Source: Patescibacteria group bacterium (GTDB taxonomy: Bacteria > Patescibacteriota > Patescibacteriia > Patescibacteriales > JAQTRU01). From it: 64,000 nt of DNA. Positions 1 through 34,686 of the stretch are shown piece after piece. The position numbers and the translations under genes were made by a program. The DNA is taken from contig JAQTRU010000001.1 of NCBI GenBank assembly GCA_028711655.1, forward strand, positions 6,648-70,647, read 5' to 3'. The notes under the pieces were generated by a model that was given only the letters and a program-made list of their open reading frames with translations, searched no databases and was not told the DNA's origin. Position 1 is the stretch's first letter, and each line of letters starts with the position of its first letter.

Positions 1-139
1 CTAAGCTCTAAATCCTAAACAAATTCTAAATTCAAATTATCAAAATTCAAAACTTCATATTTTGATAGCTGTTTGGGATATTTGGATTTTGGTAATTTGG
101 TATTGTTTAGGATTTAGAGTTTCGGATTTCGGATTTATA

Positions 140-2131
140 CTAAGGGCATTCGCTCCCCGCTGTTGGCGCGCCGGCGCAACAGGAAGGATTGCCGGCGCAG
201 CCCGGCCCCGAGCTCGGCTTAAAACAATTCTGATTTATGTCTTTTACCCCGGAACCGACTTGCGCCCGATACCTAGTTGAATCATTAAAGGTGGAGTGCC
301 TTATTTCCACCCTTGTCCCGTCCGGGTCGCCATCATCATTATTATCTATATTATTTTTCGCTATCCAATATCCCGGCAATTCCGGATCCGGTTCAGGAGG
401 AGAGAGGGTGGATTTTGCAGAAATTAGATTAATCAACTTATGTTCAATATCGTCTCTGCCATTATTTATTATTATACTGCCCGTTCTCAAGCTGGAAGAC
501 ATCATCGCTTTGTTAAAATCTATTAAAATCGGCTTGGCCAAATGAGCGCCGGTAGCCCCCTGACTAAGGAGCCGCTCTTCTCCGAACGAATTTTCCTGGG
601 AAGTGGCGGTAATTTCCGGCGGGCTTAAATCAACTATCTCACTAATGGAAAAAAGCCATTGATAATTATCGCCGGCAAGGGGATTGGGGCTGTTTTCATT
701 ATAAAAACTGGCTGGGCCGTCAGCATCTCCGTCTCGATTGCCATCCAGGGAATTGAAAGCCATGTCAGCCACCCCGGCCAGGGGAAGCAGGGATAGGGGA
801 TAATTCTTCCCCTCCCCATCCTGACAATGGCTGTTAGCGCATGTATTGTAAGGGCTGCGGCTGGCGCAATTATCAGCTCCGCAATCAGCCAAAACCGCCG
901 CTTTTATTTCTACTTTTATCTGGCTGTCTCCGGGCAGGCAGTAAATTTTTTCTCCGCAGCCGTTAACTCCGCATTGAATATCGCTTATAAACTCTATGGT
1001 TTTGTATTGATTGGAAATATTAAATTTCCCTTTAAGGCAGGTATCGGCTCCGCAGGAAAAATACCCATCGTTAGCCGGATTGCAATCAACTCCGCCTACG
1101 CATTTTACCGCTATCTGGCCGCTTACCTCTTCCGCGTTGCCGGAAACGGTTAAGGGGTTGATGGCTTCGTTAAAATTTATCTGAATAACAGAGTTTCTCG
1201 GCTTAGTACTGCCCGGCTTGGGCAAAATTCCCCCTTTATCCGCCGCTCTTACTTGCGGTGGGGTTAAATCAAGTTTTTCGCTCACTTTAAACTGCCACTC
1301 CAAATAGTCTCGGCTGCAAGAACTAAAAACATTGCCCCCGTCCGACTTTTTTATGTCATTGCTTAAATAAACCGTATACCAAACGCTTTCCGAAGGAGAA
1401 CCAAGATAAGCTTTCGGGGAAAAAACAAAAACCTTGTTGTCCTTTGTAATAACATTAATTCCGGTAATAATGCTGTTTGGATCGCTAGTTTTGAATAATT
1501 TGACATGGTTGTCCGAAGGGACGCTTTCTTTTTTAATCTCATCGCCGGCATCGCAAAAAACTCCGTTATTATTGGTGTCATCACAAATGGTTTTGGGGTC
1601 AATTTCTTCCCTGAAACTTACTATAATGGAAGTGTTTCTTGGCACCTCCTGCTGGCTGGGTTCAGGATAAACGCTTTCTACCGAGCAGGAGCCCAAAACG
1701 CCGATGCCGCCGCCAGCGCCCCCGCTCGGGCCGCCGCCAGCGCCCCCGCTCGGGCCGCCAAAAGTCGCTCCCATCAATCTGTTTAAAACAAAACTGGCAA
1801 TGGCAAAAGAGGACAAAATAATTACCAAACCGATAATAGCGTTTTTCAAAATATTCTTGGCTTTGGCAATTTTTTCTTCGTTGCCTTCGGAAACCATCCA
1901 CATCCAGCCGGCGTACATAATCAAACAAACCGCTATAATTCCCAAGAATCCCAAAGCCGCTTGAATAACCCGGGCGATTATAATGCGCGGGTCATCTCCG
2001 CTTAACCCGATTTGCTCTCCGTATTCCATTCCTAAATCGGCCTGGGCGTAAACAAAATCAGCTATCACAAAACTAGCTATAGCTAAAAACATTACTATAA
2101 TTATTAAATTTTTTTTGGATTTAAACACCAT
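140..2131 (-). CDS. Secreted/surface protein: signal peptide, two-TM TrbC/VirB2-pilin-like N-terminal module, tandem GGPSGGAGG linker, long Cys/Asp/Gly/Asn-rich extracellular C-terminal region
   Basis: 663-aa ORF. N-terminus MVFKSKKNLIIIVMFLAIASFVIADFVYA (signal peptide) then two hydrophobic helices separated by EGNEEKIAKAKN, which is the T4SS pilin-like fold. Exact 27-bp tandem duplicate at ~1700-1760 encodes GGPSGGAGG twice. More than 30 Cys in the C-terminal half. Confidence 0.6.
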   Translation of the reverse strand: MVFKSKKNLIIIVMFLAIASFVIADFVYAQADLGMEYGEQIGLSGDDPRIIIARVIQAALGFLGIIAVCLIMYAGWMWMVSEGNEEKIAKAKNILKNAIIGLVIILSSFAIASFVLNRLMGATFGGPSGGAGGGPSGGAGGGIGVLGSCSVESVYPEPSQQEVPRNTSIIVSFREEIDPKTICDDTNNNGVFCDAGDEIKKESVPSDNHVKLFKTSDPNSIITGINVITKDNKVFVFSPKAYLGSPSESVWYTVYLSNDIKKSDGGNVFSSCSRDYLEWQFKVSEKLDLTPPQVRAADKGGILPKPGSTKPRNSVIQINFNEAINPLTVSGNAEEVSGQIAVKCVGGVDCNPANDGYFSCGADTCLKGKFNISNQYKTIEFISDIQCGVNGCGEKIYCLPGDSQIKVEIKAAVLADCGADNCASRSPYNTCANSHCQDGEGKNYPLSLLPLAGVADMAFNSLDGNRDGDADGPASFYNENSPNPLAGDNYQWLFSISEIVDLSPPEITATSQENSFGEERLLSQGATGAHLAKPILIDFNKAMMSSSLRTGSIIINNGRDDIEHKLINLISAKSTLSPPEPDPELPGYWIAKNNIDNNDDGDPDGTRVEIRHSTFNDSTRYRAQVGSGVKDINQNCFKPSSGPGCAGNPSCCAGAPTAGSECP

Positions 2132-2529
2132 TTTGTAAAATTTCTAATTTCTCCCGCCACTTTATTATATTCATGGCGGACGGGATCCTCCGCCTCTGGC
2201 GGGGTGATAATTCACCCCGGTAGTAAAAACCTTGTTTCACTGCGGGGCAGACCTAATTTCTAAAAAATGTCTAATTCCTGAATTTCTAATGTCAAAAATG
2301 TTTCTAATTTGGAAATTAGACATTTGGACATTTGAATTTTTACCTGCCCGCTAGCCTACGGCAGCTAGGTAGGCGGGTTAGAAATTAGAAATTGGGTCAA
2401 TTAGGAATTTTTTATATTATCTTGTTATTTTATTATTTTATTATTTTATTATTTCCGCCGCGTTGACTATTCCCCTCTTTTGTTATTTAATACTATTATA
2501 ACATAAATAAAAGCCAGAGGGCAAACAAA

Positions 2530-3986
2530 ATGACAATTGAACAAATAGTAAAAAAAATTAAAGAAAATAATCCCAAAGCGGATACGGACATGCTGAAACT
2601 GGCATATGATTTTGCCATGAAGGCCCATGGCGAACAAAAAAGGAAGACGGGGGAACCATATATCCAGCACTGCCTGCATACAGCCTTTGTTTTGGCGCAA
2701 ATTAAGGCGGATTTAAATACAGTCATCGCCGGCATCCTCCATGATATTCCCGAGGATACCGATTATACTCTGGAGGATATAAAAAACAATTTCGGAGAAG
2801 AAACCGCTTATTTGGTTGAGGGAATCACCAAATTAAGCAAAATAAAATATCGCGGCATTGAAAGATACCGGGAAAGTTTAAGAAAAATGTTCCTATCCAT
2901 GGCAAGCGACTTAAGGATTATTATAATTAAATTTGCTGACCGTCTCCACAACTTAAGGACCTTGGAAGGGCTGCCGCCGGAAAAACGCCTGCGTATCGCC
3001 AAGGAAACCCTGGAAATTTACGCTCCCATTGCCGGACTTCTGGGAATCTGGAGTTTGAAATGGCAGATGGAAGACATTTGTTTTAAGCATCTTTACCCGG
3101 AAGAATATAAAAAAATAGAGTATAAATACGAAGTGGAAAAGAAGGTTGAACATACCCAATATATCCAAAGGATAAAAAATATTTTAAAGAAAAATTTTGA
3201 AGAAGCCGGCATTAAATATAAAATAGAAAGCCGATTTAAACACCTTTACAGTATTTACCAAAAAATGCAGAAAAAAGACAGGCAATTTAATGAAATTTAT
3301 GATGTTTTCGCCCTCCGGGTTATTGTGCCAAACGTTAATGATTGTTATAAAGTCTTGGGAATCATCCATACTCTTTGGAAGCCAAAAGCCAACCGCTTTA
3401 AGGATTATATCGCCTCGCCAAAACCTAATGGCTACAAAAGCCTGCACACCACCGTCTTTGGTCTGGAAGAAAAAGCCATTGAATTTCAAATCAGAACCAA
3501 AGAAATGAATGACGAAGCCCTTTACGGTCTCGCCGCCCATTGGTATTACAAACAAAAAAGGGGCGGCAAAGAGGAAAACCGCTTTATTGGTTCAGAGAAA
3601 TCTTAGATATCCAGCGGGAAGCTGAGGATACGAATGACTTCGTAAAAAAAATAAAATTTGACATCTTCGGCAACAGAATTTTCGTTTTTTCTCCCAAGGG
3701 CGATGTTTTTGAACTTCCGGAAGGATCTACGCCGATTGATTACGCTTACGCTGTCCACACCGAAATCGGCAATAAGGCAACCAGGGCCCTGGTTAACGAT
3801 AAAATAGCCGATTTGGATAAAGAATTAAAAAGCGGGGATCTGGTGGAAATTATCATAGATAAAAACCGCCCGGGACCAAACCGGGCCTGGCTAAAATTTG
3901 TTAAAACCGCCAACGCCCGCAACCGGATAAAACATTATTCCAAGACACCCATGGAAAACTTTAAAAATTTTTTTCCAAAATTTTAG
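2530..3986 (+). pseudogene. rel: RelA/SpoT-family (p)ppGpp synthetase/hydrolase (HD, synthetase, TGS), interrupted by a frameshift in an A6 run (~3554-3559)
   Basis: ORF 2530..3606 has the HD motif HDIPEDT and the synthetase domain. ORF 3540..3986 in another frame continues with a TGS domain (VFSPKGDVFELPEGSTPIDYAYAVHTEIG). The overlap contains the homopolymer caaaaaag. Confidence 0.7.
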
Positions 3987-17691: not shown

Positions 17692-19065
17692 TTAGAAATC
17701 TTCTAAACCATCTCTCACCACCATACCAACAACAAACCAAGAAAACAAGACTCCAAAATGCAAACTCCAATACCAATGGTCAACCATCATTATTATAACT
17801 AAGCTAGCGAGAATAGACAAACCAAAATATTTTTTATTTTTTATTAAATTCCATCCCAAAAATCCTAAGAGTCCCAAAAATCCCAATAATCCTACCACCC
17901 CCACTTCCGCCCAAACCAATAAAAATACATTATGGACCGGCTGATAATTCCAGCTCTCCTGACCCGGTTTCATTTCCTTTAAAGCCAAGGTGTAATTTCC
18001 CATCCCGGCGCCAAATAACCAATTATTTTTTATTAACTCTTTAGCATCAACTAAAGACTCCTTTCTTTCCGTATTAGATTTAACTTCCAGTCTCGTATCT
18101 TTAGATAACCGCGTTAAAACTAAATTATTGTAAAAATTAAATAAAATAAAAACTAAAATCCCGGCCGCCAAAATTATTTTCAACAGTTCCCTCTGCTTTA
18201 AATAATCTTTCTTTATTAAAAATATAACCAGCATCAATAAAATTCCGACTATAACTCCGGCCCAAGCTCCGCGGGAAAAAGTGAAAAACAGCGCTAATAA
18301 AAATAATAAAATAATAAAATAATAAAATAACTTAAACCTTGTTTGAAAATTTAGAAATTTAAAATTGTTTGAAAATTGAAAATTGCCAGCCAGCGGCTGG
18401 TCCGCCTCTGGCGGAAAAATTGAAAATTTATTAACTAAAAAACAAATTACTATCAATACGCCCGCAACTAAAATCCCTCCCAAAACATTCGGATGATCCA
18501 ATCCCCCATAAGCCCGAAGCCACCTTTCGCCAATCCCATCAGCGCCAATTGTTTCCACAACCGAAACCCCGAGTTCAGCCGGATTATGCATCGCCATTCC
18601 CAACCACTTAGAGGCAAAACTTGATTGGGATAAAAATTGGTAAATCCCCAAACCGGCTTGAAAAAAAATTCCCGCCAACAAGCTCCACAACAATTTCATT
18701 CTGTTATAATTCGCGCTCGTCACGAGCCAAAACAATCCCACCCCCAATAAAAACCAACCGTATTTATACAAGGCCAGCCATTTGTCAGAAGCAGAAAATA
18801 TAGAAATAAAAATAAATAAATCCAAAACCGCTATCACCCACCAAATTTTTGAAAATTTAGAAATTGAAAATTGTTTGAAAATTGAAAATTGAAAATTGAA
18901 AATTACGAATAATAATAGGAGCGCCAGCAAAATTATATCTACCCCATACAAACTATACGTCGCATATTCCGTCTCTCCGGCCCTGATAATCCACCTCGTC
19001 TGCCAAGGCAGTAAGAAAATTAATAAATACAAACCATATTTAATTATTTTTTCCAGTATTGTCAT
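17692..19065 (-). CDS. O-antigen ligase/polymerase (Wzy_C-like) polytopic membrane protein
   Basis: More than 10 TM segments and a large periplasmic loop with WLRAYGGLDHPNVLGGILVAG. Carries two in-frame word-repeat insertions. Confidence 0.55.
   Translation of the reverse strand: MTILEKIIKYGLYLLIFLLPWQTRWIIRAGETEYATYSLYGVDIILLALLLLFVIFNFQFSIFKQFSISKFSKIWWVIAVLDLFIFISIFSASDKWLALYKYGWFLLGVGLFWLVTSANYNRMKLLWSLLAGIFFQAGLGIYQFLSQSSFASKWLGMAMHNPAELGVSVVETIGADGIGERWLRAYGGLDHPNVLGGILVAGVLIVICFLVNKFSIFPPEADQPLAGNFQFSNNFKFLNFQTRFKLFYYFIILLFLLALFFTFSRGAWAGVIVGILLMLVIFLIKKDYLKQRELLKIILAAGILVFILFNFYNNLVLTRLSKDTRLEVKSNTERKESLVDAKELIKNNWLFGAGMGNYTLALKEMKPGQESWNYQPVHNVFLLVWAEVGVVGLLGFLGLLGFLGWNLIKNKKYFGLSILASLVIIMMVDHWYWSLHFGVLFSWFVVGMVVRDGLEDF
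18290..18420. repeat. Intergenic-type cassette inside the CDS: aataaaat array, gaaaatt array and GATCCGCCTCTGGCGG hairpin
   Basis: aataataaaataataaaataataaaataa ... gtttgaaaatttagaaatttaaaattgtttgaaaattgaaaatt gccagccagcggctggtccgcctctggcgg. Confidence 0.7.
18838..18905. repeat. gaaaatt tandem array inside the CDS
   Basis: ttgaaaatttagaaattgaaaattgtttgaaaattgaaaattgaaaattgaaaattacg. Confidence 0.7.
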
Positions 19066-26989: not shown

Positions 26990-28603
<1,614 letters not shown>

Positions 28604-28718
28604 TCTAGGGAGATATTCGGTGAAAAAAACGAATGTGTCGACCTACTTAAATTTTTATAAAATCTAGGTGGGAAATTGGCGCCTGCTAGCTTTGAAATTT
28701 TGATCATCAAATAAAAAA

Positions 28719-33464: not shown

Positions 33465-33600
33465 TTTAAATTATCAATTATCAATTTTCTAATTTTCAAT
33501 CAATTACCAATTAACAAATTTTCAATTGATAATTTAATTATTGAAAATTCATTAATAATTGAGACTTGAAAATTGAAAATTTTATCTCGTCCTTATCCAT
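33465..33600. repeat. Palindromic array of the tcaatt / gaaaatt words between the paralogs
   Basis: ttatcaattatcaattttctaattttcaatcaattaccaatt ... ttgaaaattcattaataattgagacttgaaaattgaaaatttta. Confidence 0.7.
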
Positions 33601-33617
33601 TTTCGCTTTTTGCTTCT

Positions 33618-33908
33618 TCAACGGCTGTCCAAATAATCAATAACATATTCTAACCTCTCAATAATGCTACCGTCATTATTGACCACCACCAAAGACGAGT
33701 CAAAATCATTATTCGCGTTGTTGGCGCCCAAGATATTTTGGGTAAAATCCTGGTCAGAATCAGCCGGCCCGGCCGAGGGTTCGATAAAAGCGACGTAAAC
33801 ATAAACGGTAACAACCGCGGTTAAGGTTAGAATAATAACCACAATGGCCTTTTTGCCTAATTCTTTTAGATTTAAGAAATTTATTATTTTTTTAACAAAA
33901 TTTTTCAT
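33618..33908 (-). CDS. Truncated duplicate (N-terminal 96 aa) of the 32610-33458 paralog
   Basis: ~190-bp near-identical DNA (33655-33840 vs 33225-33400). Confidence 0.45.
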   Translation of the reverse strand: MKNFVKKIINFLNLKELGKKAIVVIILTLTAVVTVYVYVAFIEPSAGPADSDQDFTQNILGANNANNDFDSSLVVVNNDGSIIERLEYVIDYLDSR

Positions 33909-34018
33909 ATTTAGATTGCCTATAGCAAAAAATAATCAGAAAAACTACTTTGGTTATCTGAACTTATTTTATCATTATTTTAAAATAATCTCAATATTAA
34001 AAACGCGCTCCGCAAACA

Positions 34019-34047
34019 TTGACAATTAGATTAATCTCCCCTATAAT
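34019..34047 (+). promoter_or_regulatory. clpP promoter (sigma-70 consensus)
   Basis: TTGACA-17 nt-TATAAT. Confidence 0.7.
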
Positions 34048-34098
34048 CTAAACATAAAAAATAAATAATTTTTTATTTTTGATTTCTAATTTTTAATT

Positions 34099-34686
34099 TT
34101 GAAAGATATGCCTTTAATTCCAACAGTTATAGAAAAAGACGGACATGTGGAACGGGCTTATGATATCTATTCCCGGCTTTTAAAAGACCGGATTATATTT
34201 TTAGGCGAGCCTATCACCGACCATGTCGCCAATATCATTATCGCCCAATTTCTGTTTTTGGACGCCGAGAATAAGGACCGGGACATAAAATTTTATATCA
34301 ACTCTCCGGGCGGATCAGTCACGGCCGGTATGGCGATCTATGACACCATGCAATATGTCAAATCCGATGTCTCCACAATTTGTGTCGGCATGGCCGCTTC
34401 TATGGGCGCCACCTTGCTCGCTGCCGGAGCCAAAGGAAAAAGGTTCGCTTTGCCCAATTCGGAAATTATGATCCACCAGATTATGGGCGGAGCCGAAGGC
34501 CAAGCTGTTGACATAAAAATCAGGGCCGAACATATCCTGAAGATAAAAGACAAAATGAATAAAATCCTGGCTTTCCATACCGGGCAAAAAATCTCCGCAA
34601 TTGAAAAAGACACTGACCGCGACCGCTTTATGGATGTGGAAGAAGCGAAAAAGTACGGCATCATTGATAAAATAATTACGAGGTAA
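34099..34686 (+). CDS. clpP: ATP-dependent Clp protease proteolytic subunit
   Basis: [20 protein letters not shown] (Ser) ... MIHQ (His). Confidence 0.9.

Follow-up and report, generated by a model that had tools for sequence, protein, structure and literature searches.

A pilin-type membrane hairpin joined to Cys-rich Ig-like domains in a conserved gene pair of Patescibacteria

We analysed a stretch of 64,000 nucleotides from contig JAQTRU010000001.1 of a Patescibacteria group bacterium (assembly GCA_028711655.1), referred to below as the window, and in it the gene that we call g1, a single open reading frame (ORF) of 663 aa on the minus strand with an ATG start and a TAG stop. The g1 protein combines a signal peptide, a two-helix hairpin of PF18895, a pilin family of type IV secretion systems (T4SS), a Gly-rich linker of constrained length, and an ectodomain of ~520 aa that consists of three Big_5-type immunoglobulin-like (Ig-like) domains and a Cys-rich tail. 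In most of its relatives g1 is followed by a second gene, g2, whose product carries the same hairpin, and the two hairpins are more alike within a genome than between genomes. The two genes form a widely conserved pair whose products probably make up a structure for attachment or of the cell surface, and we lean towards the reading that g1 is a hairpin-anchored Ig-like stalk working with g2 as a surface adhesin or fibril. A preliminary description of this DNA, made from the letters alone, had recognized the pilin-like module and proposed an adhesin; it had missed that g1 is the first member of a conserved pair with a giant paralog next to it.

Domain anatomy of g1

The gene and its parts lie at the following positions of the window.

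140..2131, minus strand: g1, complete gene, pilin hairpin plus Ig-like ectodomain, 663 aa; the TAG stop is at 140-142
2042..2131, minus strand: signal peptide, aa 1-30 (MVFKSKKNLIIIVMFLAIASFVIADFVYAQA), from hydropathy, a predicted helix at 6-23 and the invariant Ala29
1766..1990, minus strand: VirB2-like helical hairpin, aa 48-122, from PF18895 and the AlphaFold2 helices, the best-conserved region; transmembrane (TM) helix 1 at ~51-79, predicted cytoplasmic turn and amphipathic start of helix 2 at 80-96, TM helix 2 at ~97-119
1700..1771, minus strand: Gly-rich disordered linker, aa 121-144, with a predicted local distance difference test score (pLDDT) below 50
1706..1759, minus strand: exact tandem duplication, aa 125-142, found by Tandem Repeats Finder and encoding GPSGGAGG GPSGGAGG GG
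1271..1699, minus strand: D1, Ig-like (Big_5), aa 145-287, 33.8 bits alone against 23.6, with Cys149, 183, 193 and 272
635..1270, minus strand: D2, Ig-like, aa 288-499, partial Big_5 match of 16.2 bits, opening with the Big_5-type motif DLTPPQV
227..634, minus strand: D3, Ig-like, aa 500-635, 26.0 bits alone against 23.6, beta strands
143..226, minus strand: conserved tail at the C-terminus, rich in Cys, aa 636-663 (NCFKPSSGPGCAGNPSCCAGAPTAGSECP), with a mean identity of 63% to homologs

NCBI holds a protein 100% identical to g1, annotated as 'Ig-like domain-containing protein', with the start called at the internal Met14. We favour the longer start because the consensus of the homologs begins MxKxxK... 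and because this start supplies the n-region of a signal peptide. The signal peptide comprises a K-rich n-region and a hydrophobic stretch and ends VYA-QA; Ala29 is invariant among homologs, and the sequence suggests that a cleavage site of the signal-peptidase-I type (A-x-A/A-Q, cut between Ala and Gln) is likely. The protein is rich in Gly (67), Asn (48) and Asp (43), as the preliminary description had stated, and its translated C-terminus, ...CFKPSSGPGCAGNPSCCAGAPTAGSECP, is the one given there. The Cys count of more than 30 and the ectodomain length of ~480 aa proposed at that time did not hold: the count is 21, with a single Cys in helix 1 and the other 20 in the ectodomain, and the ectodomain (aa 145-663) is ~520 aa long.

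Two hydrophobic segments at aa ~51-79 and ~97-119 (Kyte-Doolittle) enclose the charged segment SEGNEEKIAKAKNILKN, and AlphaFold2 places helices at residues 6-23, 48-80 and 85-122, with pLDDT 85-90 in the hairpin. The hairpin modelled by itself again gave two helices folded back on each other. Both results agree with the signal peptide and two TM helices with a short charged loop that had been described first. The segment before the hairpin is acidic and the turn is Lys-rich. The Pfam model T4SS_pilin (PF18895) matched g1 above its curated cut-off (33.2 bits against 26.6), as the preliminary description had anticipated for a hidden Markov model (HMM) search with the N-terminus; the match covers aa 51-115 (window 1787-1981), and the N-terminal 126 aa alone scored 37.4 bits. 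All 23 of the g1 and g2 modules tested matched PF18895, with a best E of 6e-13. The TrbC/VirB2 model PF04956 scored 13.2-17.9 bits, under its cut-off of 27.9, with an alignment spanning model positions 5-97 of 98, and reached E < 0.01 in 2 of the 23 modules. The NCBIfam model NF045849 (Mbov_0395 pilin-like conjugal transfer protein) gave 37.1 bits, below its cut-off of 40; by this score g1 is related to that family and is not a member of it. When the isolated hairpin model was searched with Foldseek, the matches listed were generic hairpins (best E 0.29) and included no T4SS pilin. Profiles of the whole family and of the hairpin had no relevant match among the PDB sequences. It is therefore the Pfam model, and not structure, that places the hairpin in the pilin family.

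The hairpin is widespread. An exhaustive HMMER search with the hairpin profile through 1.84 billion cluster representatives gave 65,689 clusters at E <= 1e-3, a number that falls to 20,188 with E <= 1e-10 and to 856 with E <= 1e-30, and the top matches included g1-sized, g2-sized (1,500-2,600 aa) and short proteins, some of the short ones truncated. Some public proteins carry 2-17 hairpins in tandem on one chain, among them P0121 (552 aa, six near-identical hairpin repeats), P0125 (1775 aa), P0170 (966 aa) and P0128 (245 aa). From their sequences these chains look like 'poly-pilin' membrane proteins and not like arrays of separate genes.

The linker that follows the hairpin contains the sole exact repeat of its kind in g1. 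Tandem Repeats Finder reported a period of 24 bp at 1706-1759, with 2.2 copies, 100% matches and a score of 108; the DNA reads ggcggcccgagcgggggcgctggc twice, then ggcggc. An exact 54-bp repeat cannot be a chance match. The exact duplication claimed earlier is therefore present in the linker, with a period of 24 bp in place of 27 bp, and the peptide reads GPSGGAGG twice followed by GG; the earlier GGPSGGAGG x2 is obtained only if the copies overlap by one Gly. The proposal that the linker is a hot spot for length variation was contradicted by the family, in which the linker is 19-25 aa long in 67 homologs (24 aa in g1). Its sequence turns over, and lineages carry small repeats of their own. 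Because length is held while sequence changes, the linker appears to be a spacer of set length and not a variable region.

The ectodomain was matched by Big_5 (PF13205) in four stretches with 59.7 bits in total for g1. The beta strands of D1 have pLDDT above 90 (AlphaFold2). In D2, scanned alone, the Big_5 match is restricted to the start of the domain, and we therefore take D2 to be a Big_5-like sandwich with Cys-rich insertions. These insertions include four C-x4-C motifs, and 7 of the 12 Cys are invariant (387, 392, 398, 417, 422, 431 and 436). D2 also carries an acidic loop, LDGNRDGDADGP, in which most residues are at least 90% conserved; the LDG..R..GP columns of the domain are invariant, and the pLDDT of D2 is above 90. 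D3 opens with VDLSPPEI and has an acidic loop, NNDDGDPDG. In the tail C636, C651 and C662 are invariant and C645 and C652 are at least 90% conserved, so that 12 Cys of the protein are invariant or nearly so (387, 392, 398, 417, 422, 431, 436, 636, 645, 651, 652 and 662). These conserved Cys are putative disulfide partners, and the conserved acidic loop is a putative Ca2+ site. Fifty-three of 68 aligned sequences have an extra segment of ~230 aa between D1 and D2, near aa 296-312; g1 is the short form.

The AlphaFold2 model of g1, built on the alignment of 68 family members, had a mean pLDDT of 85 and a predicted template modelling score (pTM) of 0.77, and shows a signal helix, the hairpin, the linker (disordered over aa 121-140) and then an all-beta part mostly with pLDDT above 90. 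Against the PDB, Foldseek matched g1 only to strings of Ig-like domains, the best being the Ig-like domains of LdtMt2 (E 9e-8) and SbsC (1.3e-7), followed by cadherins, titin and CopC. The Cys-rich extracellular domain of the preliminary description is thus sharpened to a rod of three Big_5-type Ig-like domains, and its extracellular location is supported by the predicted topology of the hairpin. That description had named an N-terminus unmatched by pilin models and an enzyme fold in the C-terminal part as the outcomes that would speak against it; the N-terminus matched PF18895, and no enzyme fold was found in g1 by Pfam, NCBIfam or Foldseek against the PDB. An LPXTG motif and a C-terminal hydrophobic segment are both absent (the C-terminus is ...PSCCAGAPTAGSECP), and the Pfam scan of g1 found neither an SLH nor another wall-binding domain.

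The partner gene g2 and constraint on the hairpin

A word-indexed search returned >861 homologs of g1 from metagenome-assembled genomes (MAGs) of Patescibacteria, nearly all with PF18895 plus PF13205 and some named 'pilin'. Relatives of g1 were present in at least 398 genomes in a scan with one genome per species; the carriers are titled Falkowbacteria, Uhrbacteria, Komeilibacteria and Parcubacteria group. All seven g1 carriers that we found in Table S1 of PMC12102498 belong to the GTDB class ABY1, and the host of g1 is a monoderm bacterium, probably of this class, from the Candidate Phyla Radiation (CPR). Many of the loci, including L013, L015, L017, L024 and L032, come from MAG records titled 'uncultured Gammaproteobacteria bacterium' (binchicken, SRP co-assemblies); because the gene pair and the synteny are of CPR type, these titles are evidently wrong.

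Partners of g1 were searched with an HMM made from the N-terminal 122 residues of the family. In the window g1 is its sole match. Among 80 non-duplicate loci, 63 have another ORF that carries this hairpin (E 1e-30 to 1e-49) directly downstream on the same strand, and several of the remaining 17 end right after g1. This second gene, g2, encodes 1,550-3,540 aa where complete, with PF18895, TIG, Big_5 and three fn3 domains and about 100-134 Cys. Since g1 ends at position 140, g2 is expected just past the left edge of the window; this flank was recovered neither by exact look-ups of the NCBI protein identical to g1 and of the HisRS of the window, which gave no record, nor by an exact 50-nt DNA search of metagenome contigs.

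The conservation of g1 is uneven along the chain. Mean identity to the window protein is 67% in the hairpin, 63% in the tail, 59% in D2, 54% in D1, 52% in D3 and 33% in the signal peptide. An inert membrane anchor would not be expected to be the most conserved region of the protein. Furthermore, the hairpins of g1 and g2 share 68.5% identity within a genome, compared with 60.7% for g1-g1, 57.8% for g2-g2 and 57.1% for g1-g2 pairs taken between genomes, and the g2 of the same genome is the best match to the g1 hairpin in 22 of 63 genomes, where chance would give ~1. At identical residues the same codon is used with a frequency of 0.50 within genomes and 0.41-0.43 between genomes; we rejected recent gene conversion as the whole cause of the likeness, the excess in same-codon use being only of this size. 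These values suggest that the two hairpins co-evolve and may contact each other or a common partner.

Gene neighbourhood and flanking elements

The neighbourhood of g1 is strikingly constant. In the relatives the upstream order is a UvrD/AddA-like helicase, RuvB, QueA, signal peptidase I (LepB), HisRS, S21, YqeY, a divergent RelA/SpoT and g1, and the downstream order is g1, g2, TSP3-repeat membrane proteins, YbeY, DAGK and FtsA. The upstream genes in the window are as in the relatives. When the ORFs of the 80 loci were clustered, the recurrent neighbours were HisRS (50 loci), RelA/SpoT (49), LepB (47), TSP3-like proteins (35), YqeY (27), YbeY (25) and DAGK (21). The g1 family is inherited vertically as a core gene and lies among housekeeping genes. 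No T4SS ATPase was found among 30 scanned ORFs of the window, which include all of 405 aa or more, as the preliminary description had claimed for the surroundings of g1, and the neighbour families that recur within +/-10 kb in the 80 relatives include none of VirB4 size.

Downstream of g2, at L002:17772-21919, L004:19201-21002 and L006:18328-20209, lie a Big_9/He_PIG protein of 856-886 aa and/or TSP3 proteins. The latter number one to three; they are small, cross the membrane once and carry bacterial thrombospondin type-3 repeats, which bind Ca2+. Both kinds of protein may belong to the g1-g2 surface module.

Two intergenic elements flank g1.

3..122, minus strand: long nested stem-loop of the mRNA strand that follows the g1 stop at once, where synteny leads one to expect the intercistronic spacer of g1 and g2
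2132..2529, no strand assigned: divergent intergenic region between g1 and RelA/SpoT, with a promoter-like site and many AT-rich inverted repeats

The stem-loop consists of the inverted repeats 3-22/103-122 (95% complementary) and 33-51/81-99 (89%). The 139 nt after the g1 stop fold with -31.5 kcal/mol (z = -6.7), and none of 200 shuffled sequences was equally stable. Strong hairpins of unrelated sequence occupy the same position in L008 (11951-12070), L001 (12083-12230), L014 (12112-12200) and L006, and in other relatives the gap between g1 and g2 is only 7-17 bp. Because the hairpins of the window, L008, L001 and L014 are without a U-tract, they may be processing or stabilising signals and not terminators. 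Possibly the stem-loop sets the ratio of g1 to g2 expression.

On the other side of g1, a consensus scan found a promoter-like site for the gene, TTGCCC-18-TATAAT with TG, at 2524-2495 on the minus strand. The spacing between RelA/SpoT and g1 is 75-252 bp in relatives, shorter than in the window, so that the region 2132..2529 does not count as a conserved element. We also considered a conserved leader RNA in front of g1 and rejected it, since there was no Rfam match and the spacer is much shorter in relatives. An AT-rich motif, TTAGAAATTAGAAATT, has with its variants 20 matches in the window at up to 3 mismatches, where 5.4 are expected; its sites are at 2139-2393, 21-36, 18344-18872 and 33484-34103, concentrated upstream of g1 as inverted repeats.

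Two further observations concern other genes of the window. The RelA/SpoT-type gene (HD + RelA_SpoT + TGS; 2530-3986, plus strand) is spread over two ORFs, of 358 aa and 148 aa, that overlap, where relatives have a single ORF of 485-488 aa. By tblastn the break lies near 3550-3606, from frame 1 to frame 3 beside an A6G4 run, and reflects either a fault of the assembly or a real frameshift. At 26991-28604 (plus strand) a complete bacterial 16S rRNA gene measures 1,614 nt against a model of 1,533 positions and probably carries an insertion. No 23S match was found in the whole window, and the next gene after the 16S gene, on the other strand, encodes a class I (Trp/Tyr-type) tRNA synthetase, so that the rRNA genes are apparently unlinked.

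What the gene pair may build

On the reading that we favour, signal peptidase I would cut the signal peptide of Sec-exported g1, and the VirB2-like hairpin would hold the protein in the cytoplasmic membrane with its N-terminus outside, the Lys-rich turn inside and helix 2 leaving outward. A length-constrained Gly-rich tether of ~22 residues would connect it to the three Big_5 Ig-like domains, which would form a rigid rod, probably with disulfides and Ca2+ to stabilise it and with the conserved Cys-rich tail at the tip. g1 would act with g2, the Cys-rich TIG/Big_5/fn3 protein bearing the same hairpin, the small TSP3-repeat membrane proteins encoded downstream may join, and g1 and g2 together would form a surface fibril or adhesin complex that contacts a host cell or a surface. 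In Paceibacteria growing on methanogens, PF18895-domain proteins and Ig-like-fold proteins, encoded by separate genes, are among the highly expressed proteins of unknown function and were read as host-adhesion proteins (Kuroda et al., PMC10936435). Several points weigh against an anchored stalk. A plain anchor needs neither 67% conservation nor a hairpin of pilin type, and this constraint hints at a role in assembly. An adhesive role is what Ig-like domains would suggest only in a generic way. In the present genome g2 would lie outside the window, and its presence is predicted from synteny only. In addition, old gene conversion could account for part of the within-genome similarity of the hairpins.

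A role in assembly is the core of a second explanation, which we judge doubtful and which is the main rival and the more novel reading, namely that g1 is a modular T4SS pilin. A chromosomal T4SS encoded elsewhere (VirB4/VirB6) would extract the hairpin, which would polymerise with the hairpin of g2 and/or with small VirB2-like pilins into a filament resembling a conjugative pilus. Since pilins of the VirB2/TraA type have their C-terminus on the exterior of the filament, the pilus would be decorated or capped by the Ig-like rods, which would serve it as built-in adhesins. Membership of the hairpin in PF18895, its position as the most conserved part of g1 and its co-variation with the g2 hairpin within genomes are all in line with this explanation, and the strong stem-loop after g1 would fit a higher g1:g2 expression ratio, as in operons of major and minor subunits. 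VirB2-like pilins (PF04956/PF18895) occur in 1,948 assemblies, often as arrays near virB4, and an MPF_FATA-type T4SS is found across CPR; a PrgB-type adhesin was not found there (Quinonero-Coronel et al., PMC12102498). This leaves a niche for pilin-fused adhesins. A T4SS with its array of VirB2-like pilins is essential for the epibiotic growth of Ca. Southlakia epibionticum (Wang et al., PMC10633639), and a 2025 review proposed that CPR monoderms may elaborate a conjugative pilus (PMC12857230). Six of the seven g1-carrying ABY1 assemblies in Table S1 of PMC12102498 are VirB4-positive, the seventh being a 619-kb partial MAG, so a T4SS is usually present elsewhere in g1-carrying genomes; however, VirB4 occurs in most CPR genomes anyway, and the co-occurrence does not discriminate. 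The neighbourhood speaks against a pilin, with no T4SS gene among the scanned ORFs of the window or the recurrent neighbours of the 80 relatives. An ectodomain of 520-3,400 aa per subunit would be hard to pack in a helical filament, the TrbC/VirB2 match stays under threshold (13-18 bits against 27.9), and the Foldseek matches listed for the hairpin are generic hairpins (E > 0.29) and no T4SS pilin.

A third possibility is a structural envelope coat, in which the two proteins, in place of an adhesin, would make up a layer of S-layer type or one that spans the wall, with the Gly tether crossing the peptidoglycan and the Ig-like rods outside. S-layer proteins have been reported in Patescibacteria (bioRxiv 10.1101/2024.05.28.596244). 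Big_5 is typical of the S-layer proteins of Geobacillus, and SbsC was the second-best Foldseek match of g1; the global TM-score to SbsC is, however, only 0.13-0.14. The fixed length of the linker suits a spacer of defined thickness, and a vertically inherited core gene among housekeeping and cell-division genes is in line with such a coat. Bacterial S-layer proteins are normally Cys-poor and normally lack transmembrane anchors, whereas g1 has 20 Cys in its ectodomain and g2 about 100-134, and neither an SLH nor another wall-binding domain was found in g1 by Pfam. On these grounds we consider a coat improbable. A cell-wall enzyme, for example one resembling an L,D-transpeptidase, is scarcely credible and was rejected, for although LdtMt2 chains are the best Foldseek matches (E 9e-8 to 5e-6), the significant match is to their Ig-like domains A and B (E 6e-7 for 4hu2, an entry with just these two domains), Pfam and NCBIfam detected neither YkuD nor any other catalytic family, and the whole ectodomain is predicted as beta-sandwiches.

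The VirB2-like pilins described from Patescibacteria (Ca. Southlakia) share with g1 PF18895, a signal peptide followed by a two-helix hairpin, and the same radiation, but they are small and lie in arrays by virB4, whereas g1 has 663 aa with a 520-aa ectodomain, sits in a housekeeping neighbourhood away from T4SS genes and is paired with a giant paralog bearing the same hairpin. VirB2/TrbC/TraA (PF04956) likewise begin with a signal peptide and have two hydrophobic helices joined by a short basic turn, and the Ala/Gln-type processing site of g1 presumably resembles that of VirB2; g1 differs in its sub-threshold PF04956 score, in giving no PDB sequence match or specific structural match, and in its large C-terminal fusion. 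Of the traits of functional T4SS pilins, g1 lacks the small size (~70-130 aa with no extra domain) and the linkage to virB4/virB6/virB3. In the modular type IV pilins PilB and PilC of Streptococcus sanguinis, an adhesive module is grafted on a pilin. Their design, a filament-subunit module with a covalently attached adhesive domain, would be shared by g1, but their pilin class is unrelated, being that of the type IV pilus with prepilin peptidase, an N-terminal alpha-1 helix and another assembly machine. PrgB of pCF10 and LPXTG-anchored Ig-like adhesins resemble g1 in their extracellular Ig-like rods and in belonging to monoderms with an MPF_FATA-type T4SS; g1 has no LPXTG or sortase signal (it ends ...GSECP), and its anchor would be the N-terminal hairpin. 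SbsC/SbsA and LdtMt2 share the strings of Big_5-type beta-sandwiches and give the best Foldseek matches, whereas g1 is Cys-rich, would be membrane-anchored, and is without a wall-binding or catalytic domain.

The architecture of g1 is already in the databases; in the literature on CPR T4SS, pilins and surface proteins we found no description of fusions between a pilin hairpin and Ig-like domains or of the g1-g2 pair. Censuses of pilins count such proteins as 'VirB2-like pilins', although many are surface proteins of 600-3,500 aa. Bacteria of the CPR/Patescibacteria live attached to other cells, and what their pilins build and what contacts the host is the question that g1 addresses. It offers a hypothesis for the display of an adhesin or surface fibril, either by anchoring through the hairpin or by incorporation into a pilus. 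If the proteins were modular pilins, g1 would be the first example of a T4SS pilin to which an adhesin is covalently fused and would supply the missing adhesin of a T4SS that is essential for epibiotic growth in one tested CPR bacterium; a monoderm would then build a conjugative-type pilus that already bears its Ig-like adhesin rods.

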